NCBI GenBank assembly: GCA_028819345.1
Contig: JAPPLW010000007.1
Coordinates: 16,557-80,556 of the forward strand
DNA: 64,000 bases
From: a bacterium
Lineage (GTDB): Bacteria > Actinomycetota > Acidimicrobiia > Spongiisociales > ZC4RG35
Reading direction: 5' to 3'
Positions within the stretch are counted from its first letter, which is position 1; each line of letters starts with the position of its first letter. The position numbers and the translations under genes were made by a program. The notes below the pieces were generated by a model, which made no database searches, had not been told where the DNA came from, and saw nothing but the letters and a program-made list of their open reading frames with translations. Below are positions 8,290-47,257 of the stretch, piece after piece.

Positions 8290-9561
8290 TTACCGGCGTC
8301 CCAGCATCCTGAAGCGGGTGGGGCGGAACGGCTCGAGGTCGACGGTGGTGTCCTCTGAATCGACGAGTTGGCCGATCAGTTCCCCGGTGATGGCGGCCAT
8401 GGTGAAGCCGAGGTGACCGTGACCGTAGGCGAGGTACACGTTCTTCTGGCGAGGCGATCGGCCGATCACCGGGAGCGAGTCAGGATGGGAAGGCCGGAAG
8501 CTCATCCACTTTTCCGCCCCTTCGGTGTTCATGCCGGGAAAGAGTTCCTGAGCGGCCCGGATCAGCGCATCCGCCCGGCCGTAGTCGGGGGGAGCGCGCA
8601 AGCTCGCCAACTCGTCGGTGCCCGCCAGGAGAAGCCAGCCCGGCACCGGAGTGATCCCCACATGGCGGTCCATGTAGATCAAGGGCCCGCCAAGGGCGAT
8701 GCCAGGGTCGGGAATCCTCACTCCGTAACCGCGTTCCGTGTCGAGAGGTGTGTCGAAGCCCAGGGCGCGTACGAGAGAACGCGACCAGGCGCCCGCGGCG
8801 ATCACCACCCGGGAAGCCCCCAGTCGGCCGCCATCGGTCTCCACCGCCGAAACCCTGTCTCCCTCAATACGGAAACCCCGCACCGTGTGCTCCAGCCATC
8901 GACCTCCGGCCTCTCTGAACCGGGCGGCGACCGCGGCGGTGAAGGCCCGGGGATCGGCGTAGTAGGAGTCACGCACCAGCACGCCCCGGCTGATGCGGCC
9001 CGAAAGGGCGGGGTACAGGGCTGCTACAGCGCGCCGGTCGAGAACCTCAACGTGGATCCCCCTCGCACGGCGCACTTCCAGGCCGTATTGCGCCTTCCTG
9101 AAGGCAGCCTCCGAACCGTAGGCGAGTAGATGACCGCCCGCGAAGAGCCCGGCATCCGGATCCGGCATCGCCAGGAGGTCGGAGTACGCCCGCACCGCCT
9201 GTTTCTGCAAACTGGCAATGGCTACAGACAGCTTTTCCACCCGGCTCGGACGGCTTGCGAGGAGGAACCGAGCCAGCCAGGGAGTCAGTCTCGGTAGGTT
9301 TCGCCATCGGATCGCCAGGGGCGACAGCGGGTCCAGGAGCATCTTCGGCACCGAGCGGACCACCCCCGGCGTGGCGGTGGGAAGGCAATTGCCGATCGAG
9401 AACAACCCGGCGTTGTGCCCGGATGCTCCGTTGCCCGGGGGGCCGCGATCGACAATGGCGACACCGTATCCGTGTCGCTGCAGATGCAGAGCGGAGCAGA
9501 GCCCGATGATTCCTCCACCGACCACTACCACGTCGGCGCCCGAAGAGCGCTTTTTGCTCAC
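8290..9561 (-). CDS. FAD-dependent oxidoreductase (DAO / D-amino-acid dehydrogenase-like)
   Basis: N-terminal dinucleotide fold DVVVVGGGIIGLCSALHLQRHGYGVAIVDRG and DAO-family length. Confidence 0.8.
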   Translation of the reverse strand: MSKKRSSGADVVVVGGGIIGLCSALHLQRHGYGVAIVDRGPPGNGASGHNAGLFSIGNCLPTATPGVVRSVPKMLLDPLSPLAIRWRNLPRLTPWLARFLLASRPSRVEKLSVAIASLQKQAVRAYSDLLAMPDPDAGLFAGGHLLAYGSEAAFRKAQYGLEVRRARGIHVEVLDRRAVAALYPALSGRISRGVLVRDSYYADPRAFTAAVAARFREAGGRWLEHTVRGFRIEGDRVSAVETDGGRLGASRVVIAAGAWSRSLVRALGFDTPLDTERGYGVRIPDPGIALGGPLIYMDRHVGITPVPGWLLLAGTDELASLRAPPDYGRADALIRAAQELFPGMNTEGAEKWMSFRPSHPDSLPVIGRSPRQKNVYLAYGHGHLGFTMAAITGELIGQLVDSEDTTVDLEPFRPTRFRMLGRR

Positions 9562-9768
9562 AAACCCCCTGACGGGATCGGATACCGGGAGACAGACACG
9601 GTCGATACTAACGAGCGGTCCCGGCGTCCCGACGGGGTGCGGAGACTCCTCCCGGTGCGGGGTTCTTGGCTTGGGGGAGGATGCGAGCCAGGCTCCGGCG
9701 GGGTGGAAAAGGTATACTCAGCGATCCCCCGAAGGTCCTCTAACAACACCCCTGGACGCGGAGGAGCG

Positions 9769-10521
9769 ATGCCCGGCCGTCTGGAAGACAAAGTAGCCAT
9801 AATCACCGGTGGCGCCACCGGCATGGGTCGAGCCGCCGCAATCCTCTTCGCCGGGGAGGGCGCCAAGGTGACGGTGGCGGATCGCAACGTACCCGAGGGG
9901 CGGAGCACGGTGGCCATGGTTGGGGAGGCCGGTGGCGAAACCCTATTCGTCGAGACGGACGTCTCCAAGGCCGAACAGGTGAGCAACATGGTGGACCAGA
10001 CGCTGGAGCGTTTCGGGAAGCTGGACGTATTGGTGAACAACGCGGGGATTCTCATCCGAACGCCGCCACTGGCGGAAGTGTCCGAGTTGGTCTGGAACCT
10101 GACCCTCGACACCAATATTCGCGGAGTGTTTCTCTGCACCAAGTACGCCATCCCCCACATGGTGGGCCGAGGGGGGTCGATCGTCAATGTGTCTTCGGGC
10201 GCCGGCATTCACCCCACCACCCACGCCGTGCCGTACGGTGTCAGCAAGGCCGGGGTCATCCAACTCACATTGACCACCAGCTCCCAGTACGCCCCGGATG
10301 GGGTGCGGTGCAACGTCATCGTGCCCGGGCCCATCGACACCCCACAGGCCCGGGGGAGCACCGGGAGCGCCGAGGAGTTCGCTCTGATCCCCTCGCGGGT
10401 GGCGCTGGGGCGGGCGGGTACTCCCCGGGACATCGCCAACCTCATGCTGTTCCTGGCCTCCGACGAGTCGTCCTTCATCAGCGGCGCCGCCATCCAGATC
10501 CACGGCGGCGGCCAGGTGTAG
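9769..10521 (+). CDS. SDR-family oxidoreductase
   Basis: GGAGGAG SD, then ATG 9769. Cofactor motif ITGGATGMGRA. NNAG, the catalytic S...YxxxK (YGVSKAG) and PGPIDTP are present. Confidence 0.85.
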   Translation: MPGRLEDKVAIITGGATGMGRAAAILFAGEGAKVTVADRNVPEGRSTVAMVGEAGGETLFVETDVSKAEQVSNMVDQTLERFGKLDVLVNNAGILIRTPPLAEVSELVWNLTLDTNIRGVFLCTKYAIPHMVGRGGSIVNVSSGAGIHPTTHAVPYGVSKAGVIQLTLTTSSQYAPDGVRCNVIVPGPIDTPQARGSTGSAEEFALIPSRVALGRAGTPRDIANLMLFLASDESSFISGAAIQIHGGGQV

Positions 10522-10542
10522 GACCGAGAAGGGAGAGAGAAG

Positions 10543-10773
10543 ATGTCCCAGCAGGCCCTCCGGGAGATCATCGACCGGGCAGTCGCCGACTACGGGTTCC
10601 GGCTGGCCGTCATGTGGGGAACAGACGACGTGATAGCGGGGTCGGGCCTCACCTCCGGGGAGGGTGACTTCCTTCGGGACCTGGTCGTTCCGGAACTGAA
10701 GAATCTCCCCAACCCGGTCGAGCCCGCCGACCATGCCGCGGTGCAGGAGCGCCTGGCCAACCTGGCGTCCTGA
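10543..10773 (+). CDS. small hypothetical protein (LigA-subunit / NHLP-like helical pattern, tentative)
   Basis: 76-aa ORF preceded by GAAGGGAGAGAGAAG and located 21 nt after the SDR stop. Family assignment is only pattern-level. Confidence 0.5.
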   Translation: MSQQALREIIDRAVADYGFRLAVMWGTDDVIAGSGLTSGEGDFLRDLVVPELKNLPNPVEPADHAAVQERLANLAS

Positions 10774-22807: not shown

Positions 22808-25312
<2,505 letters not shown>

Positions 25313-25328
25313 GCCCCGCCCGTCCCGA

Positions 25329-26344
25329 CTAGTAATCCAGAGTGACCGTCCGGTGATGTTCGCCCATCCGGGAGGCATCCGCACCCAAGACGGCTTCCGA
25401 CCAGAGGAAATAGTCGAGGCGCGGTCCGGTAACCGAGACGCCCTCAGCCCTGAGGGCTTGCACGAGCAGGTGGCCGGCGTAGACCGTCGCCCACCGAATC
25501 GCCGCTTCCTCGGGCGAGTGACGGGAATCTCGGTGCGGGAATCCACTGCCCGGGACAACTGCAACGAGTAGCGAAGCACCCCGAGGTGTCGAAGCAGGCG
25601 AGGGAGCATGTAGTCGGGAAAGACGGGGAAGGAATCCAGCCCTGTCCAGGGTCTGGTTGACCGGGAGGCCATGAGCGAAGACGCCAGATAGGCCAGTTTC
25701 CTGAAACGGAGACGGTGACCGCCCACGGCTGCCTCGTCCTCGTAACCGGGGATGGTCGTGGCTAACAGTTCGACCACCGCCGGCCCGTCCCACCCTGCCT
25801 CTTCCACCAGGTGCTGGGTGGCGCCGGCCCACCGCTCTGTGACCGCCTCCGCTACCCGGGCGATCCGGACGCCCCGTTCGGGCACCATCTGCAGAACGCC
25901 CTGTCCCGCGAAGAGGAGGCCGGCTTGTGAGCGGCCCAACTCCGAGAAGGAGCGGACGTCCGGGCAGGTATCGGGTCCCATCCACCGGGTAACGGCCCCG
26001 AACAGCGCCGGGGCATCGGTGAGGCGGCGTCCCGCATAACTGATCGACCACATCCGGCAATCCGGAGGCGGCCACAGGCAGGCCAGGACCGAGACTGACA
26101 GAACCGCGTAGTCGAACCACGGACCGTCACGGAGGCCGGGTGGCGGTCCGGGATAGTCGAAGCGGGGCGCGGGAAAAGAGCGGCCGCGCCACAGTCTGAT
26201 CAAGGCTGCCACGGCTTCGGGGGAGATCTCTACTCCCCACCCGGCCGGAGGCGGCCCCGAACGGAGGTCGGTGAAGGGCTGGTTTTCCTCGGCCGGGTTT
26301 GGGCAGTCGCTCGGGCCGGTATTCTCAAAGGGGAGGGGAGGCAT
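25329..26344 (-). pseudogene. queuosine-salvage family protein (DUF2419 / QNG1-like) interrupted by a 1-nt frameshift near 25522-25525
   Basis: N-terminal ~273 codons are in the frame of track ORF 24869..26344 (…FPDYMLPRLLRHLGVLRYSLQLSRAVDSRTEIPV). The C-terminal 62 codons are in the frame of ORF 25329..26120 (HSPEEAAIRWATVY…LDYFLWSEA…HHRTVTLDY). Total length is 1016 nt, not a multiple of 3. Confidence 0.65.
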
Positions 26345-26384
26345 GTTCTGAGTAGTAAGTCAACAATCTGAGAAGGAGCCTTTT

Positions 26385-27407
26385 ATGAGAAAGAGAATAT
26401 TCGGGTTGTCCGTCGTAGCGGCGTTGTCGCTCCTGGTGGCCGGGTGCGGAGGTGGTGACGACACCTCGGTGTACCTGGTGTTTGACATAGGAGGACGGGG
26501 AGACCAATCGTTCAACGACTCTGCCGCCGCCGGTTTGGATCGGGCCACCGAGGAGTTGGGGATAGCCGCCAGCGAACTCGAGCCCACCGCCGGTGGGGAG
26601 AACCGGGACGAATTGCTCAACCTGGCCGCTGAGGACGGCGCCCAACTGGTCTTCGGCGTGGGCTTTCTGTTCGCCGACGCCATCGCAGCCGCGGCCGCGA
26701 CACACACCGATACCAACTTCGGTCTGATCGACGGTTTCGTCCCCGACCTGACCGCTGACAGCAACCTGGTGTCACTGGGCTTTGCCGAGCACGAAGGCTC
26801 CTTCCTGGTGGGAGCAGCCGCCGCTCTGAAGAGCCGGACCGGCAAGGTGGGCTTCATCGGTGGCGTGGAGATCGACCTCATCAAGAGGTTCGAGGCGGGG
26901 TTCGCGGCCGGCGTAAAGCACATTGATCCCGGAATCGAGATTGATGTCAAGTACATCACCCAGCCCCCTGACTTTGCAGGGTTCACCGATCCGGCCAAGG
27001 GCAAGGAGATCGGCGCCGCCATGTATCAGGCGGGCGCCGACGTCGTGTACCACGCGGCGGGAAGTTCGGGAGGCGGACTCTTCCAGGCCGCCAAGGAGCA
27101 GAGCGAGAGCACCGGTAGCCATGTGTGGGCGATCGGAGTGGACTCCGACCAGTACCTGACCGCCGGCGCCGAATTCCAGCCCTACATCCTCACGTCCATG
27201 TTGAAGAGAGTGGATGTTGCAGTGTTTGAGACCATCTCCACTCTGGTCGACGACAGCTTCGAGGGCGGCTATCGCACATTCGACCTGTCTGTCGACGGGG
27301 TTGGATACGCCACCAGCGGAGGACACGTGGCTGACATAGCCGACCAACTCGACGACCTGAAGGCCCAGGTCATCTCTGGCGCCATCACCGTTCCCCAAGC
27401 ACCGTAA
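26385..27407 (+). CDS. BMP-family (BmpA/PnrA/NupN-like) ABC-transporter substrate-binding lipoprotein, nucleoside-type
   Basis: Lipobox LLVAGC. YLVFDIGGRGDQSFNDSAAAGLDRA, GFIGGVEIDLIKRFEAGFAAG, WAIGVDSDQY. Confidence 0.9.
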   Translation: MRKRIFGLSVVAALSLLVAGCGGGDDTSVYLVFDIGGRGDQSFNDSAAAGLDRATEELGIAASELEPTAGGENRDELLNLAAEDGAQLVFGVGFLFADAIAAAAATHTDTNFGLIDGFVPDLTADSNLVSLGFAEHEGSFLVGAAAALKSRTGKVGFIGGVEIDLIKRFEAGFAAGVKHIDPGIEIDVKYITQPPDFAGFTDPAKGKEIGAAMYQAGADVVYHAAGSSGGGLFQAAKEQSESTGSHVWAIGVDSDQYLTAGAEFQPYILTSMLKRVDVAVFETISTLVDDSFEGGYRTFDLSVDGVGYATSGGHVADIADQLDDLKAQVISGAITVPQAP

Positions 27408-31459: not shown

Positions 31460-32688
31460 CAGCTGGGTTCGATCCCTACCACCCCGACTTCATCTCCAAC
31501 CCCTATCCTGTCTATGCCCGACTGAGGCAACGCTATCCGGTCTTCCACGACGAGAACTGGAACCTCACTTTTTTCAGCCGACACGCCGACGTCTACCAGA
31601 TCCTCCGGGATCGCCGCTTCGGGCGGGACATCCGCCACGCGCCGGGAGCCGCCGCTCGGGTCGATCCCCAGGTTTATCAGCGGATCTATCCTCCCCAGTA
31701 TCCGGTATGGACCCGGATGATCCGAGACTCCTTCATCGACCTGGAGCCACCAAGACATACCCGTATCCGCCGGCTGGTGCAGTGGGCTTTCAGTCGTCGG
31801 GCCTCACAGAGTTATCGGAAGAGGATGGAGGTCGAGGCGCACCGGCGGTTGGACGCGGTGGCCGGGGAGGGACGCATGGAGGCCATCTCCGGGTATGCCA
31901 CCCCCATACCACTGGTGATGATCGGAGAACTGATGGGAGTGCCACCGGTCGATCAGCCCCGCCTGGTGGAGTGGTCGCATTTGATCGTGAGACTCTTCGA
32001 CCAGGGCTGCACACCTGCCGAGGGGGAGGAGGCCGAGCAGGCCGTCATCAGCTTCTGCACTTACATGAAGGAGTTGATCGCCGAGCATCGGGGTCGGGAT
32101 GCGGACAACCTTCTCTCACATCTGATCCGCTCCGAGCACGAGGGGGACGTCCTCAGTGAGGAGGAATTGATCTCCACCGCAATCCTGGTCCTGAACGCCG
32201 GACACGAGGCGACCGTTCAGGCGATCGGCAACGGGCTCATGGCGCTGGCGGCCCACCCCGACCAGTGGCGGCGATGGCGTTCCGATCCCAGGATGAGCGG
32301 GACCGCGGTAGAGGAGTTGCTCCGGTACGACACGCCACTCCAGATGTTCGAACGTTGGGTGACCGAGGACCTCGAATGGAGCGGTATGCCGTTGGAAGGG
32401 GGGTCGAAGGTGGGTCTGCTGCTCGGCTCGGCCAATCACGACGAGGCTGTGTTCTCCCGACCGGACCGCCTCGACCTGGGGCGCACCCCCAACCCTCATG
32501 TCTCGTTCGGCGGCGGGGTGCACTACTGCGTGGGAGTGGCCCTCGCCCGGGAGGAGTTGAAAGTCGCCTTCGAAGTGCTGTTGGACAGGGTGCGCTCGTT
32601 CGAAGTAGAGAATGGCGCCGGACAGCGCGTCCCCAGCTTGGTGTTCCGAGGGGTGCCGAAGCTTCCTCTCAGCCTGGAGTTCGTCTAG
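31456..32688 (+). CDS. cytochrome P450
   Basis: I-helix LNAGHEAT, K-helix EELLRYD and heme loop FGGGVHYCVGVALAR. TTG 31456 overlaps the permease stop (TTGA). The first 194 codons of track ORF 30874..32688 are out-of-frame overlap with the permease. Confidence 0.85.
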   Translation: MTAGFDPYHPDFISNPYPVYARLRQRYPVFHDENWNLTFFSRHADVYQILRDRRFGRDIRHAPGAAARVDPQVYQRIYPPQYPVWTRMIRDSFIDLEPPRHTRIRRLVQWAFSRRASQSYRKRMEVEAHRRLDAVAGEGRMEAISGYATPIPLVMIGELMGVPPVDQPRLVEWSHLIVRLFDQGCTPAEGEEAEQAVISFCTYMKELIAEHRGRDADNLLSHLIRSEHEGDVLSEEELISTAILVLNAGHEATVQAIGNGLMALAAHPDQWRRWRSDPRMSGTAVEELLRYDTPLQMFERWVTEDLEWSGMPLEGGSKVGLLLGSANHDEAVFSRPDRLDLGRTPNPHVSFGGGVHYCVGVALAREELKVAFEVLLDRVRSFEVENGAGQRVPSLVFRGVPKLPLSLEFV

Positions 32689-33608
32689 GAGACGGCCGTG
32701 GTGGTCGTTTCCGAACTGAGGGGCGCCGCCGGATAGCCGATCACGTTGATGCCTTCCACCGCCAACTCCTTGTAGACCGTGCCGTTGCGGACTTCCGCGT
32801 CATACACCGTGGTTATGGTCAGGGTGAGTTGATTGGTCCGCATCACCGCCAGGTCGATGATCTGGGACCCGAGGCGGTCCACCAGGTTCAAGGGAATGGC
32901 CACGCCGCTGTCGCTTCCCGCCTCCATGGTCCTCACCCTGAAGTTTTGGTAGAAGCGGTCCTCGTCACTGACGTTGACCCACTCCAGGCGGCGGATGGTG
33001 ATGGGCTGCTCGAAGACCAGGCTGATGGTGACCTGCGTGCCCGGGGTGATGTCTGTCCACCTTATCTGCCACTCGCCGGTCTTTCCGTTAATCAGGTTGT
33101 CACAGGAGTAGATGGCCCCCAGTCCCTCCGGGGAACACTCCACGCTCAACACGCCCTGGGTGGTGGGGATCGGTGGGGGAGCGGTGGTGGTGGTGGTTTC
33201 CTGGACAGCCGCGGTCTCTTCGGGAGCCTCACCGTCCTCTTCGGATCCGCCGGTGAAGAGGTTGAAGAGCAAGGCGAACACCGCAACCGCGAATATGGTT
33301 GTCCCGGTGGCGATGACCGCTCTCACCCGAGCATTCGTCCCGATGGTGGGACGGGGAGCGAGGGGCATGTCCGCTTGGTTTAGTCTTATGTGGCACTGCT
33401 CGCAACTCTGCCGGGAAGGAGGGTTCAGGTGGCCGCACAGGGAGCAGGACACCATGTTGTGGGTGGTTGGGTAAGCGACCGGGGAGTCGTCCGGGGAGGG
33501 GCCTTCGGTCGTCGTTGAGGGGATCGGCCTTTCAAGGAGAGCGCCGCACGAGGAGCAAAAGTCGGCATCTCCGACATCAGCGCCGCATCGACCACAGATC
33601 TGTCTCAT
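32685..33608 (-). CDS. double zinc-ribbon / single-TM protein with Thr-rich linker and extracellular discoidin-like (NADase-type glycan-binding-like) domain
   Basis: MRQICGRCGADVGDADFCSSCG and CSLCGHLNPPSRQSCEQC. TM helix AVIATGTTIFAVAVFALLFNLF. C-terminal WQIRWTDITPGTQVTISLVFEQPITIRRLEWVNV...NFRVRT. ATG 33608 is preferred over the track start. Confidence 0.7.
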   Translation of the reverse strand: MRQICGRCGADVGDADFCSSCGALLERPIPSTTTEGPSPDDSPVAYPTTHNMVSCSLCGHLNPPSRQSCEQCHIRLNQADMPLAPRPTIGTNARVRAVIATGTTIFAVAVFALLFNLFTGGSEEDGEAPEETAAVQETTTTTAPPPIPTTQGVLSVECSPEGLGAIYSCDNLINGKTGEWQIRWTDITPGTQVTISLVFEQPITIRRLEWVNVSDEDRFYQNFRVRTMEAGSDSGVAIPLNLVDRLGSQIIDLAVMRTNQLTLTITTVYDAEVRNGTVYKELAVEGINVIGYPAAPLSSETTTTAVS

Positions 33609-33645
33609 AGCCAGCCTATTTTGGCACAGTCCCCGAGGTGGGCGG

Positions 33646-34839
33646 TTGATTTCATTTGTGGAGCCAGGGTACCCCGGCCGGTCTCTTCGGCATATGCATT
33701 CAGCAGTGATGATACTGGCAAAGCGCGGCAGCCTCTTTGCTAGCCTCAAAGCTGTGGCGGGAGACCGAACAACCCAACAGGTCGTGGAGAGACTCTTCTC
33801 GCATCGTCCTATCCGCGACGGGTTGGAAAGGATACTCCAGGCCAGGGAGGGAGCCTTGATCGTGCTCGGCTCGAACCTCGACCTGCAAGACATCAGCGTC
33901 GACGGACTGCAAATAGCGTCTGACGGTTTTGACGCCGCCCGTCTGTCGGAAGTGGCGAAGATGGACGGGGCGATAATCCTCGACAACTCGTGGAAGAGCA
34001 TCCTGACCGCTAATGCCCATCTCTCCCCCCCTGTGGATCTCCCCACCACCGAATCCGGTTCCCGGCATCGCACCGCCCAGCGGACCGCTTACATAACCGG
34101 CTTGCCGGTGGTCACCGTGAGCAAGGACCGAGCGGTGGTGACCCTGTATTTCAATTCCGAGCAGGCGGATCTCACCCCCCGCTGGACAATCCGCAGGAGG
34201 ATTCTCCACCATCTTCAGATCCTCGTGATGATGCGGAAGCGGTTCGATGAAGCCGAGGAGCACCTGCTGCGGATGGAGTTGCTGGGGCTGGTGACCCGCA
34301 GGGATGTGGCGCACATGCTCAGACTGGGGGAGTTGGTGGTCAGGGCTGCATCCGGCATCGAGGCCATGGTGGTCGACTCCGCCCAGGACCCGGACACCAC
34401 CGCGGCTGTCGTGGCGGACCGGGTCTTCGAAGTGGAGAGACTGCTGCAATTGACCTTGAGGGATTACCTGGATGGCGAAGGGGATGAAGCTCGCGGGGCG
34501 CTGGCCGGCGTGCTGGGCCACAAGCTCGCCCACACCTGGCTTGTGGAGACAGAGATCGGACTGTCCGACCTGGATGGAGAGCTTGTCCCGCGGGGGCACC
34601 GACTTCTGTACAGAACGGGCGTTGTCACCAAACGGATCAGGGGAATCCTCCTGGAGGAGTTTCCCGACGCCCAAGCCCTGCTGCATGCACCCCTGGAACG
34701 CCTGATGGATGTGAAGGGAGTGGGCCACAAGACGGCCACCAAGTTGAGGCACTACTTCGATCGGCTACTGGCCGCGGTTCACCCCATAGGACAACGCGTT
34801 CTCACAGACCGGCGCAAATCGTATAATCGTCTTCCATGA
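33646..34839 (+). CDS. disA: DNA integrity scanning protein DisA (diadenylate cyclase)
   Basis: DAC domain: RDGLERILQAREGALIVLG, KMDGAIILD, TESGSRHRTAQRTA. C-terminal HhH: LMDVKGVGHKTATKL. The true start may be ATG 33694 or 33709. Confidence 0.85.
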   Translation: MISFVEPGYPGRSLRHMHSAVMILAKRGSLFASLKAVAGDRTTQQVVERLFSHRPIRDGLERILQAREGALIVLGSNLDLQDISVDGLQIASDGFDAARLSEVAKMDGAIILDNSWKSILTANAHLSPPVDLPTTESGSRHRTAQRTAYITGLPVVTVSKDRAVVTLYFNSEQADLTPRWTIRRRILHHLQILVMMRKRFDEAEEHLLRMELLGLVTRRDVAHMLRLGELVVRAASGIEAMVVDSAQDPDTTAAVVADRVFEVERLLQLTLRDYLDGEGDEARGALAGVLGHKLAHTWLVETEIGLSDLDGELVPRGHRLLYRTGVVTKRIRGILLEEFPDAQALLHAPLERLMDVKGVGHKTATKLRHYFDRLLAAVHPIGQRVLTDRRKSYNRLP

Positions 34840-38273: not shown

Positions 38274-38347
38274 GCTGGCGTAGCTCAGACGGCCAGAGCA
38301 GCTGATTTGTAATCAGCAGGTCGTGGGTTCGAGTCCCACCGCCAGCT
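38274..38347 (+). tRNA. tRNA-Thr (anticodon UGU)
   Basis: Cloverleaf read by eye: acceptor GCTGGCG/CGCCAGC, D arm GCTC/GAGC, anticodon arm GCTGA-TTTGTAA-TCAGC, T arm GTGGG-TTCGAGT-CCCAC. CCA is not encoded. Confidence 0.9.
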
Positions 38348-38492
38348 CCTCCAGGGTCCCTTCCTAAATGTGCCAACTTAGCCACAAACTGCGATAACCT
38401 ACTGTTGGGATGTCGAATCTTGTGTCCCCGTTCACCAATCTCGGGGAGGTACTTGAACTGTTGATCGTGGGACCTGTATTGGCAGGTCGCCG

Positions 38493-40035: not shown

Positions 40036-40041
40036 TATAGT
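40036..40041 (+). promoter_or_regulatory. candidate -10 hexamer (TATAGT) for a leaderless transcript starting at ATG 40049
   Basis: The hexamer ends 7 nt before the ATG. There is no SD in between. Confidence 0.35.
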
Positions 40042-40048
40042 GCCTCCG

Positions 40049-40720
40049 ATGGCGCTACCCGACTTCACCCTCGAGGACCAGGCCTGCCAACCGTGGACAC
40101 TCGGCAGCCACCTGGACGCAGGGGTGCTCCTGGTGTTCCTCCGCGGGGACTGGTGACCCTACTGCAATGGCCAGTTGGCCAGCCTGGCGCACCGCCATCA
40201 GGAGATCCTGGCGGCCGGATTCCGTACCGCGGCTATCGATGTCGACTCCCCATCCCGGCATGCAGCGATGGTGGAGAAGCTGAAACTGCCCTTCCCGATG
40301 CTCTCGGATCCCGACCGCTCACGCGCCATCGTCCCCTACGGGCTGGCCGACCACCGGGATCCCCGCCGGGTGGCCCTACCCGCGCTGGTCGCGGCGTTGC
40401 CCGGAGGAGAAGAGGCGTACCGGTTCGTGGCGCGGGACTTCGCCGATCGCCTGCCCGAGGCCGTTCTGTTGGAATCGCTCTCCTCCCACGAGCTTCCGCC
40501 CACGACTCAGCCGCCGCCCACGCCCGGCCGACCCGAACCCGGGCCGCGGGCTGTTCCTCTCCGGGCCCTGGTCCCCTACTTCCGGGGAGGCCACTACGCG
40601 GCGCTCTCCCTGGGCATGCGCCACCGCGGCCTGGGAGAGGAATTCAAAGACGACGCCAAGGCCTTCGTTGCGGAGATGGAGCGCTTTGTGGATGCCGTCA
40701 GAGCCCTGCGAGACCGTTAG
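40049..40720 (+). CDS. peroxiredoxin-like (AhpC/TSA, PRX_like2-type) thioredoxin-fold protein with in-frame TGA at codon 36 (candidate selenocysteine; alternatively a nonsense pseudogene)
   Basis: MALPDFTLEDQACQPWTLGSHLDAGVLLVFLRGDW-TGA(40154-40156)-PYCNGQLASLAHRHQEIL, in the same frame as track ORF 40175..40720. The TGA replaces the first Cys of the W-C-P-x-C motif. Confidence 0.55.
40168..40181 (+). promoter_or_regulatory. SECIS-like hairpin 12 nt downstream of the in-frame TGA
   Basis: UGGCC-AGUU-GGCCA: 5-bp GC-rich stem with a GU-containing tetraloop. An alternative pairing is GCCAG-N9-CUGGC (40170-40188). Confidence 0.35.
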
Positions 40721-45805: not shown

Positions 45806-46404
45806 GGACGGGGAATGCCCCGTGGGGCCCGGCTCGCCCACCAGGCCGCAATCAGGGCCCCGACCATGTTGGCGATCAGGTCCTGCATGTTGTTGGCGTA
45901 GTCGCCCACCTTTACCCCTTCGATGATCAGATAGGAGAGGTATTCACCTATCTCGATCACGGTCCCGACAGCGTGGGCTCCCAGGAAGGTCAATAGGGCC
46001 GCCGGCCAGCCGCCGAAGGCCTTGAACATCCGGGATGTCGCCTCCCAGACAGCCAGACCGGCGGTTCCCAGTCCCAGGACGTGCAGGAAGTGGTCGTAAC
46101 CCAGGAACCCGAACCAGGTGGACTCATACAAGAGAGACTCGTTGATGACAACGTTCCCGCCCGCCATGTGGGCGAAGCCGGAGATGGACAGCAGCACCAG
46201 CACCTCGGTGGAGAAGCGAACCCGGCCATCAAACGCCAGCACCAAACCGACTGCGAACAGCATCCACAACAGGTAGGGGATCACCAGCCGGGCGCCCGTG
46301 CTGAAGCCATAGATGGTCCACGCCGCCACGTAGACCCCAGTCACCCCCGCAATCCACGGATGTCGGGTGATCGTGTGGGTGACCCGCGATCCGCTCGGAT
46401 TCAT
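45802..46404 (-). CDS. hypothetical polytopic membrane protein
   Basis: 200-aa ORF with ~6 hydrophobic helices and a 4-nt convergent overlap with the methyltransferase gene. No confident family. Confidence 0.6.
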   Translation of the reverse strand: MNPSGSRVTHTITRHPWIAGVTGVYVAAWTIYGFSTGARLVIPYLLWMLFAVGLVLAFDGRVRFSTEVLVLLSISGFAHMAGGNVVINESLLYESTWFGFLGYDHFLHVLGLGTAGLAVWEATSRMFKAFGGWPAALLTFLGAHAVGTVIEIGEYLSYLIIEGVKVGDYANNMQDLIANMVGALIAAWWASRAPRGIPRP

Positions 46405-46406
46405 AG

Positions 46407-46479
<73 letters not shown>

Positions 46480-46621
46480 GGGGTGGCGAAACTCGCCGGG
46501 CCTTGGATTTTATGGTAGTTGGGTAGTGGGTGCTGGGTCGTTTTGGGAGGGAAACAAGCTTTTGCCCGCCTGCGAGGGTTTCTGCGGGTCCTCTAAGGCC
46601 GGAGTTAGGCTTTTGGAACCT

Positions 46622-47257
46622 TCAGGAGGAGAAGCGCTCCTCCAGTACGGCAATCATCTCCGACGGCGATACTTCCCGATCGGCGGCCAGGACCAGGAGG
46701 TGGTAGAGAAGATCGGCCATCTCCTCGGCTACCCGCCGTTTGTCCGCCTCCCCGCGTGCGTGGTCCCGGGCAGCCATCAGCACCTCGGTTGCCTCCTCCA
46801 TCAGCTTCCGGCCAGCCAGGTCCACCCCACCTTCCAAGAGCCGGGTGGTGTAGGAGCCGGCCGGTCGCTCCGCAGCCCGGGAAGCGATAACACCCCAAAG
46901 CTGCTCCAGCCAAAAGAATCCCTCGGGCGGTGCGTCGTCGAAGCAGGTGGTGGTTTGGCGGTGACAGGCTGGACCGGCCGGGCGGACGGTGATCAAGAGC
47001 GTGTCGGTGTCGCAGTCGGCAGCGACAGTCACCACCTCCAGGGTGGCGCCGCTGGTGGCGCCCTTGAACCAGAGTTCCTGGCGGGACCGGGACCAGAAGT
47101 GGGCGTAGCCGCTATCCAGCGTTGCGGCGTACGACTCCCGGTTCAGGTAGGCCACCATCAGCACCTGGCCCGTCCGGGCGTCCTGCACCACCCCCGGTAT
47201 CAGCCCATCGGCGCTCCACTTGAGATCACCGGCCCGGGGTGGGGACAAGCCGCTCAC
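46622..47257 (-). CDS. hisIE: bifunctional phosphoribosyl-AMP cyclohydrolase / phosphoribosyl-ATP pyrophosphatase
   Basis: HisI part: [25 protein letters not shown]...[13 protein letters not shown]...CDTDTLL. HisE part: [10 protein letters not shown]...[12 protein letters not shown] overlap with the hisF stop. Confidence 0.85.

Follow-up and report, generated by a model that had tools for sequence, protein, structure and literature searches.

A peroxiredoxin-like UxxC gene of Acidimicrobiia with a conserved in-frame TGA predicted to encode selenocysteine

A stretch of 64,000 nucleotides from a marine actinobacterium associated with sponges or corals, of the class Acidimicrobiia (assembly GCA_028819345.1, contig JAPPLW010000007.1, positions 16,557 to 80,556; in the following called the window, with positions counted from its first letter) contains a gene for a peroxiredoxin (Prx)-like protein that is interrupted by an in-frame stop codon. 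From the ATG at 40049-40051 to the TAG at 40718-40720 runs a single frame of 223 codons, in which the TGA at 40154-40156 is the only interruption. Its translation goes from MALPDF...LRGDW to the TGA and then continues with PYCNGQLASLAH...; given in full, the residues before the TGA are MALPDFTLEDQACQPWTLGSHLDAGVLLVFLRGDW, and those after it are PYCNGQLASLAHRH.... With U (selenocysteine, Sec) written for the TGA, the peptide that spans the site reads GDW-U-PYCNGQLASLAHR. A mechanically called open reading frame (ORF), 40175..40720, has a TTG start and lies in the same frame as the ATG. When Cys is written in place of the TGA, the Pfam family AhpC-TSA (PF00578) matches residues 3-92 and spans the TGA, with E = 1.2e-20 and 74.1 bits against a cut-off of 26. 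The TGA is followed by a hairpin, and the ATG is preceded by the hexamer TATAGT; frame, TGA, hairpin and hexamer all lie where the original prediction for this DNA, made from its letters alone, had placed them. It is argued below that the UGA is very probably decoded as selenocysteine in a redox protein of the Prx-like UxxC kind.

The TGA is identical in three independent assemblies of the organism, i.e., two ENA metagenome assemblies from different samples and the NCBI metagenome-assembled genome (MAG) GCA_028820275.1, and the sole difference among them is one single-nucleotide polymorphism, at 40681. In each of six orthologous Acidimicrobiia loci with 70-91% identity, two of them on the closed chromosomes OZ242375.1 and OZ242000.1 and several taken from MAGs of sponges and corals, this codon is TGA and the 35 N-terminal residues are conserved. 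In a larger set of Sec and Cys forms, collected by a metagenome scan and by look-ups of contigs, the TGA is kept in 27 distinct sequences from sponge, coral, sediment, soil and other metagenomes, with identities to the window from ~37 to 91%. The ratio of non-synonymous to synonymous substitution rates (dN/dS, by the Nei-Gojobori method) ranges, over 14 relatives compared with the window, from 0.08 to 0.43 in the 35 codons upstream of the TGA and from 0.02 to 0.31 in codons +12 to +85 downstream of it. From values below 1 on both sides follows that both parts are translated in this frame. All 29 sequences compared share F, R, G and D at positions -6 to -2, yet these residues are encoded by two to six synonymous codons. 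Elsewhere in the window TGA is the commonest stop, used by 26 of 53 crude gene calls and often as part of a 4-bp overlap of adjacent genes, and the frame 40049-40720 is the sole ORF in the 64 kb that is bridged by a TGA with coding-type composition on both sides. When further TGA-interrupted genes were sought in the window and in the larger related loci, none was convincing.

In the aligned codon, where all 29 Sec-form loci (the 27 distinct sequences) have TGA, 67 more distant homologues have TGC or TGT, and these Cys forms read (F/Y)RGDW-C-P-Y-C. The original prediction had placed the TGA at an active-site Cys position, and the site is indeed that of the first Cys in this motif; it had further expected that an alignment with homologues would have TGC/TGT or TGA in this codon together with 35 conserved upstream codons, which is what the alignment contains. 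The codon for the second cysteine, Cys39, is TGC in 28 of the 29 Sec forms. In a neighbour-joining tree most TGA forms make up one large clade, while a second TGA clade (loci L038, L046 and L047, with the motif U-A-Y-C) groups beside the Cys forms. From this position follows that there has been more than one transition between Cys and Sec, and the tree indicates an independent one for the W-U-A-Y-C clade. The separate W-U-A-Y-C group of TGA forms (L038, L039, L041, L046 and L047) has a GGUC-loop hairpin of its own, in which the lower stem is shifted by one base.

If the UGA is read as Sec by the standard bacterial route, then Sec-tRNA(Sec) would be brought to the ribosome by SelB, and SelB would in turn be recruited by a selenocysteine insertion sequence (SECIS), for which the hairpin inside the coding sequence after the UGA is the candidate. 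In this hairpin, 11 nt separate the UGA from the stem, and the AGUU tetraloop would present its G and U at nt 21-22, counted, as all positions in the hairpins below, from the U of the UGA. The published criteria for bacterial SECIS elements (PMC13188914) are a loop of 3-9 nt with G in the first two loop positions, an upper stem of 4-16 bp, a spacing of 16-37 nt between UGA and loop and a minimum free energy (MFE) of -7.5 kcal/mol or lower. The window hairpin has an apical loop of 4 nt with G at position 2, followed by U, a stem of 5 bp, a spacing of 16 nt and an energy of -8.3 kcal/mol, and thus lies within every one of these ranges. The hairpin of the relatives, with loop GGUC, a 3+4 bp stem with a bulge, a spacing of 20 nt and an energy of -8.9 kcal/mol, lies within them as well. 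The SECIS-like hairpin of the original prediction is therefore supported by the published criteria, and it is supported also by the comparison of Sec and Cys forms to which we now turn.

Among the TGA forms the hairpin occurs in two mutually exclusive registers. Register 1 is found in nine distinct sequences, which belong to the window clade and to a separate clade (L094 and L097-099), and in these the sequence GGCCAGUUGGCC is invariant across both clades. Its codons are ...GGC CAG UUG GCC..., which fold as GGCC-AGUU-GGCC with the stem at nt 16-27 and the loop at nt 20-23. Register 2 is the dominant structure in the other 18 distinct sequences, here called Val-type; their codons are ...GGN CAG CUG GUC AGY..., and the structure has 4 bp, a bulge of 1-2 nt and 3 bp, with the stem at nt 17-35 and the tetraloop GGUC at nt 24-27. 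RNAalifold recovers each register independently in its own group, and among 15 Val-type sequences it finds one covarying pair in register 2, i.e., pair 18-34, which is C-G in ten, A-U in two and U-G in two. In the window, register 1 has an energy of -8.3 to -8.9 kcal/mol versus -6.5 for register 2, and the alternative GCCAG...CUGGC pairing of 40171-40175 with 40184-40188 is present there too; in the Val-type locus L092 the order is reversed, with -8.9 kcal/mol for register 2 versus -4.7 for register 1. The codons are perfectly coupled: Leu is UUG when the next residue is Ala, encoded by GCC (11 loci), and CUG when the next residue is Val, encoded by GUC (18 loci). From this coupling follows that exactly one of the two hairpins has G-U in its loop. 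The codon UUG makes up 14.7% of the Leu codons in the window.

The constraint on the RNA is confined to the TGA forms. When sequences are counted individually without phylogenetic correction, and with the two registers defined after the TGA forms had been seen, a hairpin with a GU-containing tetraloop is present in 27 of 27 TGA forms versus 3 of 26 distinct Cys forms that encode the same C-N-G-Q-L peptide, and these three are all closely related. The mean synonymous-codon entropy of the TGA forms is 0.69 over codons +1 to +11 versus 1.28 and 1.34 in the flanks, whereas the corresponding values for the Cys forms are 0.91 versus 0.69 and 0.87, so that the trough after codon 36 is seen in the TGA forms alone. 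In the TGA forms Gln is CAG in 29 of 29 cases, while CAA is used in 6 of 27 Cys forms; Val is GUC in 18 of 18 TGA forms, and Ser is AGC in 25 of 26. The nearest Cys/Sec pair with an identical peptide, N-G-Q-L-V-S-F-A-R, is L018 and L038, and it has four synonymous differences in nine codons, three of which make or break the hairpin.

That the organism possesses the machinery for Sec is made credible by its relatives. All 84 complete genomes of Actinomarina, which belongs to the class Acidimicrobiia, have selA, selB, selC and selD (bioRxiv 10.64898/2026.04.03.716425). In bins of sponge symbionts SelA and SelB co-occur widely, and the sponge Acidimicrobiia bin76 has SelA, SelB and SelD (PMC5649159 Table S4).

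Besides the order in which the registers were defined, several observations weigh against decoding of the UGA as Sec. Neither the 64-kb window nor ~377 kb of related loci contain selA, selB, selD or tRNA-Sec: tblastn with SelA, SelB and SelD of E. coli gives nothing at E ≤ 1e-3 in the window and the related loci, ARAGORN finds no tRNA-Sec in the 377 kb, and Rfam at gathering thresholds finds two tRNAs in the whole window and neither a SECIS nor a tRNA-Sec. The sponge Acidimicrobiia bin134 has SelD without SelA or SelB (PMC5649159 Table S4). Support for the machinery in this very organism is at the level of the lineage. As for the hairpin, it has 4-5 bp and is no more stable than dinucleotide shuffles of its sequence (z from -0.1 to -0.6), its spacing of 16 nt is the smallest that the published criteria allow, and its invariance in the window clade means that there is no base-pair covariation for register 1. 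The covariance-model run on the hairpin region that the original prediction had called for gave no match to any Rfam SECIS model, and the hits at 40100-40300 with E up to 10 were chance-level matches to unrelated families; such a result is expected, because bacterial SECIS elements are poorly represented in Rfam. Finally, the three closely related Cys forms, L019, L022 and L027, all from metagenomes, carry the same GGCCAGTTGGCC that follows the TGA in the window, from which follows that the hairpin is in part a by-product of the codons for G-Q-L-A.

The presence of GGCCAGTTGGCC in these Cys forms also means that a SECIS-like palindrome can pre-exist in Cys ancestors, and the element appears to have been recruited from the palindrome GGCCAGYUGGYC, which the codons for G-Q-L-A/V tend to form there. 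It is conceivable, with chances a little below even, that the SECIS has switched at least twice between the two exclusive registers, 4 nt apart, within one selenoprotein family, where each switch would have coupled a synonymous change of Leu between CUG and UUG with a non-synonymous change between Val GUC and Ala GCC. If so, the family would offer a natural series on how SelB tolerates changes in loop position and on how a SECIS originates inside a coding sequence, and the structure of the RNA would dictate the choice of an amino acid beside the active site. Sec and Cys forms with the same peptide, together with the two registers, make a compact natural data set for what SelB needs in a minimal SECIS.

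Now consider the case that the UGA is recoded, but to another amino acid. Either Cys could be delivered in a SelB-like manner by a tRNA-Sec-like tRNA, as has been proposed for UGA in some bacteria, or the hairpin could stimulate near-cognate readthrough with Trp or Cys. The conserved TGA, the frame and the constraint on the RNA demonstrate RNA-aided readthrough and do not reveal which residue is inserted, and the sponge Acidimicrobiia bin with SelD but neither SelA nor SelB would fit such a case. We nevertheless find it improbable. The site aligns with a redox Cys, and alternation between U and C is the classical signature of a selenoprotein; the GU or GGUC features of the loops are those of SECIS elements that bind SelB; TGC would suffice for insertion of Cys, yet TGA is kept across deep divergence; and insertion of Trp would abolish the redox motif.

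Still less probable is that the gene is split in two, with termination at the UGA to give a peptide of 35 residues and a separate product of 150-181 residues initiated at an internal TTG, ATG or GTG. It is true that gene callers yield exactly such pairs, of 34-35 aa and 150-183 aa, and that there is an in-frame TTG at 40175, but the called downstream starts vary among relatives (MASL.., MVEKL.., MAAIDV.., MSVDS..), from which follows that neither a start codon nor a ribosome-binding site is conserved. The break would also fall inside W-U-P-Y-C and deprive the product of strand 1 and the N-terminal half of a fold that is one compact domain in the structural model described below. The Cys homologues are continuous, and a split gene leaves the strict in-frame layout and the synonymous-site constraint after the TGA without explanation.

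The remaining two alternatives are hardly credible. The original prediction had named a plain nonsense pseudogene as its alternative, and a change from TGC/TGT to TGA in a dying gene, or an error of sequencing or assembly, is indeed just one mutational step, at a locus where the NCBI MAG has no gene call; this is excluded by conservation of the TGA and the 35 upstream codons in the 27 distinct relatives at ~37-91% identity, by the agreement among the three independent assemblies and by dN/dS below 1 on both sides in the absence of further disabling mutations, and the divergence of the relatives rules out that they are one contaminating sequence. A genome-wide reassignment of TGA to sense, as in codes 4 or 25, is suggested by JGI translations of the homologues P0021 and P0027, which have W for the TGA (GDWWPYC), but TGA terminates 26 of the 53 gene calls in the window, an internal in-frame TGA is found in no other gene, whether there or in the large related loci, and the length of P0027, 320 aa, suggests that translation by code 4 overran the normal stop.

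Decoding of the UGA as Sec thus remains the favoured reading, and the protein can be compared with selenoproteins and peroxiredoxins already described. The kind of protein is already known: Prx-like PF00578 proteins with UxxC are an established family of predicted selenoproteins, with 225 Sec versus 2,740 Cys forms in the Global Ocean Sampling (GOS) data (PMC2398784), the Prx-like UxxC family is listed as "predicted with high confidence" (PMC13188914), and a cd02970 selenoprotein with UxxS was recently listed in addition (PMC13188914). The closest counterpart is Prx-like 1, found in Geobacter, other Deltaproteobacteria and the Sargasso Sea and GOS metagenomes (PMC2398784, PMC13188914). It shares with the gene of the window the Pfam family and the UxxC motif with Sec for the first Cys, a SECIS in the coding sequence directly after the UGA, a wider family in which Cys homologues far outnumber Sec forms, and the circumstance that all members are known from prediction alone. 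The present subfamily is set apart by its exact motif, (F/Y/L)RGDW-U-P-Y-C-N-G-Q-L, by a C-terminal two-helix extension and by its lineage, Acidimicrobiia; the likeness to Prx-like 1, whose type sequence is WP_010940744.1, lies in family and motif. It differs further in that nearly all members near the window are Sec forms and in that no curated NCBIfam model covers it.

The SECIS of E. coli fdhF (NC_000913.3), which has been defined by experiment, is likewise a hairpin that follows the UGA directly on the 3' side within the coding region, with a G-U tetraloop and a single-base bulge on one side of the stem. Its loop is GGUC at nt 22-25, and the loop of the relatives is GGUC at nt 24-27, whereas the window has AGUU at nt 20-23, carried by a bulge-free GC stem of 5 bp. 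The stems here are shorter than the ~40-nt fdhF element, the bulge of the relatives is on the 3' and not the 5' side, and SelB binding is here predicted. PRX_like2 (cd02970) and SelL-related proteins have the same Prx scaffold with W-C-P-x-C in place of the P-x-x-x-T-x-x-C site; the present protein has UxxC rather than UxxS or UxxU, an added C-terminal helical hairpin and a score far below cut-off, since the best NCBIfam match, NF040769 (SelL-related redox protein), gives 40.6 bits and E = 2e-10 against a cut-off of 120, so that the protein is not a member. With BCP/PrxQ and AhpE (PDB 3hjp, 5epf, 2cx3 and 1xxu) it has in common the fold and the placing of Cys39 at the peroxidatic Cys, and it differs by Arg at the Pro position, Sec at the Thr/Ser position and the extra C-terminal domain.

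The nearest proteins of solved structure by sequence are BCP/PrxQ (2cx3, E = 2e-7), ResA and AhpE of M. tuberculosis. In the alignment with ResA (W-C-P-H-C), U falls on the N-terminal nucleophilic Cys, and in the alignment with BCP 2cx3 (S-P-V-C), Sec36 falls on the Ser/Thr of the Prx motif and Cys39 on the peroxidatic Cys. The canonical Prx site, P-x-x-x-T/S-x-x-C, is absent, in that Arg, not Pro, stands four residues before the Ser/Thr position. An AlphaFold2 model of P0021, a full-length homologue of 57% identity, has a mean predicted local distance difference test score (pLDDT) of 93.8 and a predicted template-modelling score (pTM) of 0.89. In this model the U position is immediately before helix alpha1 (residues 36-47), and a proline-rich linker leads to two long antiparallel C-terminal helices (170-190 and 196-223). 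Foldseek matches BCP/PrxQ/AhpE to ~147 N-terminal residues of the model with a TM-score of 0.85 and leaves the C-terminal helices unmatched; the extension, predicted to form these two helices, is absent from solved peroxiredoxins. Within it, Y177, G180 and R191 are invariant.

From the replacement of Pro by Arg and of Thr/Ser by Sec in the Prx motif follows that chemistry of the CxxC type is more probable than the sulfenic-acid chemistry of peroxiredoxins. Sec36 would then stand where thioredoxin-like CxxC proteins have their nucleophilic Cys, at the N-terminus of helix alpha1, with Cys39 three residues on, and the two would alternate between the selenol/thiol and the selenenylsulfide state as they reduce a peroxide or a disulfide substrate. 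Most likely, then, the protein combines a peroxiredoxin scaffold with a U-x-x-C selenenylsulfide couple of the thioredoxin type, and its substrate would be of one of these two kinds. It would be a likely selenium-dependent antioxidant or thiol-redox enzyme in symbionts of sponges and corals, and it adds to the evidence that marine and host-associated Acidimicrobiia use selenocysteine. A known class of selenoproteins is thereby extended and current understanding is unchanged; the modest novelty lies in the subfamily's systematic mis-annotation and in a SECIS that appears to toggle between two registers. The parts of the gene are collected in Table 1.

Table 1. Features of the predicted selenoprotein gene and its surroundings, in window coordinates
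Feature	Position	Strand	Basis
TATAGT, -10-like box 7 nt before the ATG, candidate promoter	40036..40041	+	Conservation, TANNNT spacing
Full coding sequence of Prx-like predicted selenoprotein, 223 codons including Sec, plus TAG	40049..40720	+	Translation, Pfam, full-length orthologues in same frame, dN/dS <1 on either side
N-terminal 35 codons, first strands of fold and F-L-R-G-D-W of redox motif	40049..40153	+	dN/dS, codon variation
UGA, predicted selenocysteine codon, residue 36, U of W-U-P-Y-C	40154..40156	+	Cys/Sec alignment
TGC, Cys39, resolving partner of U-x-x-C	40163..40165	+	PDB alignments
Register 1, predicted SECIS, 5-bp stem UGGCC/GGCCA, tetraloop AGUU (40173-40176)	40168..40181	+	MFE and RNAalifold structure
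Register 2, mutually exclusive with register 1, 4 bp, one-base bulge, 3 bp, loop GGCC (40177-40180)	40170..40188	+	Fold energies, RNAalifold
Second small hairpin, UGGCG-CAC-CGCCA, directly 3' of predicted SECIS	40185..40197	+	MFE fold of window, RNAalifold consensus of Ala-type group (most pairs kept)
C-terminal extension of ~55 residues after proline-rich linker, with conserved Y-F-R-G motif	40550..40717	+	Model, Foldseek, invariant residues

The second small hairpin of Table 1 may be a coincidence of the L-A-H-R-H codons, or it may be part of an extended SECIS.

The interruption has consequences for annotation, because the gene is split or dropped by gene callers in every database copy examined. 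The best 120 of 215 homologues in a large protein collection belong without exception to two groups: most begin after the TGA site and have lengths of 149-188 residues and a coverage of 65-81%, and two proteins from JGI read GDW-W-PYC, which is the TGA translated by code 4. Separate upstream ORFs of 34-35 aa have been called in L091, L093, L097, L100 and L104. In public databases the Acidimicrobiia redox subfamily is thus truncated to 150-183 residues, split, given a Trp at the active site or left uncalled, with at least 120 clusters of the protein collection affected, so that annotations and the functional inference built on them lack the fold's first third as well as the catalytic residue. 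The public calls for the gene disagree also with each other: ENA entries have ORFs of 34-35 aa and 150-181 aa or a spurious antisense ORF of 68 aa (window 40055-40261, minus strand), 40049-40720 is left without a gene call in the NCBI MAG GCA_028820275.1, and one W-translated homologue from JGI apparently overruns the true stop, to 320 aa.

Upstream of the gene, the spacer between TATAGT and ATG is GCCTCCG and contains no Shine-Dalgarno sequence. The sequence GGTATAGTGCCT is conserved in L001-L005, and further upstream the sequences diverge. A TANNNT box 6-8 nt before the ATG, again without a Shine-Dalgarno sequence, is found in 14 Sec-form loci of the main clade, and GGAGG occurs instead of the box in Cys forms and in some TGA forms. 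The original prediction had taken TATAGT to imply a leaderless mRNA that starts at the ATG. The conserved spacing and the missing Shine-Dalgarno sequence in the 14 loci speak for this, while a scan with the sigma-70 consensus found no promoter, and leaderless transcription from the TATAGT box would seem plausible from the arrangement of these sequences.

The surroundings of the gene are of a housekeeping character, and there is no sign of a mobile element or of a redox operon. Upstream are genes for CarD, IspF, CysS, tRNA-Thr, a LytR_C protein and a 302-residue protein of unknown kind, and downstream are those for an AI-2E-family transporter, a convergent flavin adenine dinucleotide (FAD) oxidoreductase, an AlaX-like protein and a DNA-alkylation-repair protein; a relative has the same gene order on a contig of 2.56 Mb. 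L091 also shares the synteny that extends from CarD, IspF and CysS to the DNA-alkylation-repair gene. In the window (38274-38349) and in L001-L005, ~1.8 kb separate the gene from a tRNA-Thr(UGU) upstream of it; in L091 this distance is greater. In the distant TGA form L094 (GCA_012961555.1, 1709-3698) the gene is followed by genes for a CCG-domain protein and a LUD/4Fe-4S (LutB-like) protein and not by that for the AI-2E transporter, from which follows that the genomic context is not conserved across the family. By crude composition-based calls, four stretches of the window, 9561-10543, 25312-26385, 32688-33646 and 46404-47254, each of ~0.85-1.1 kb, are without a confident ORF, and the last of these contains a tRNA-Arg at 46406-46479.

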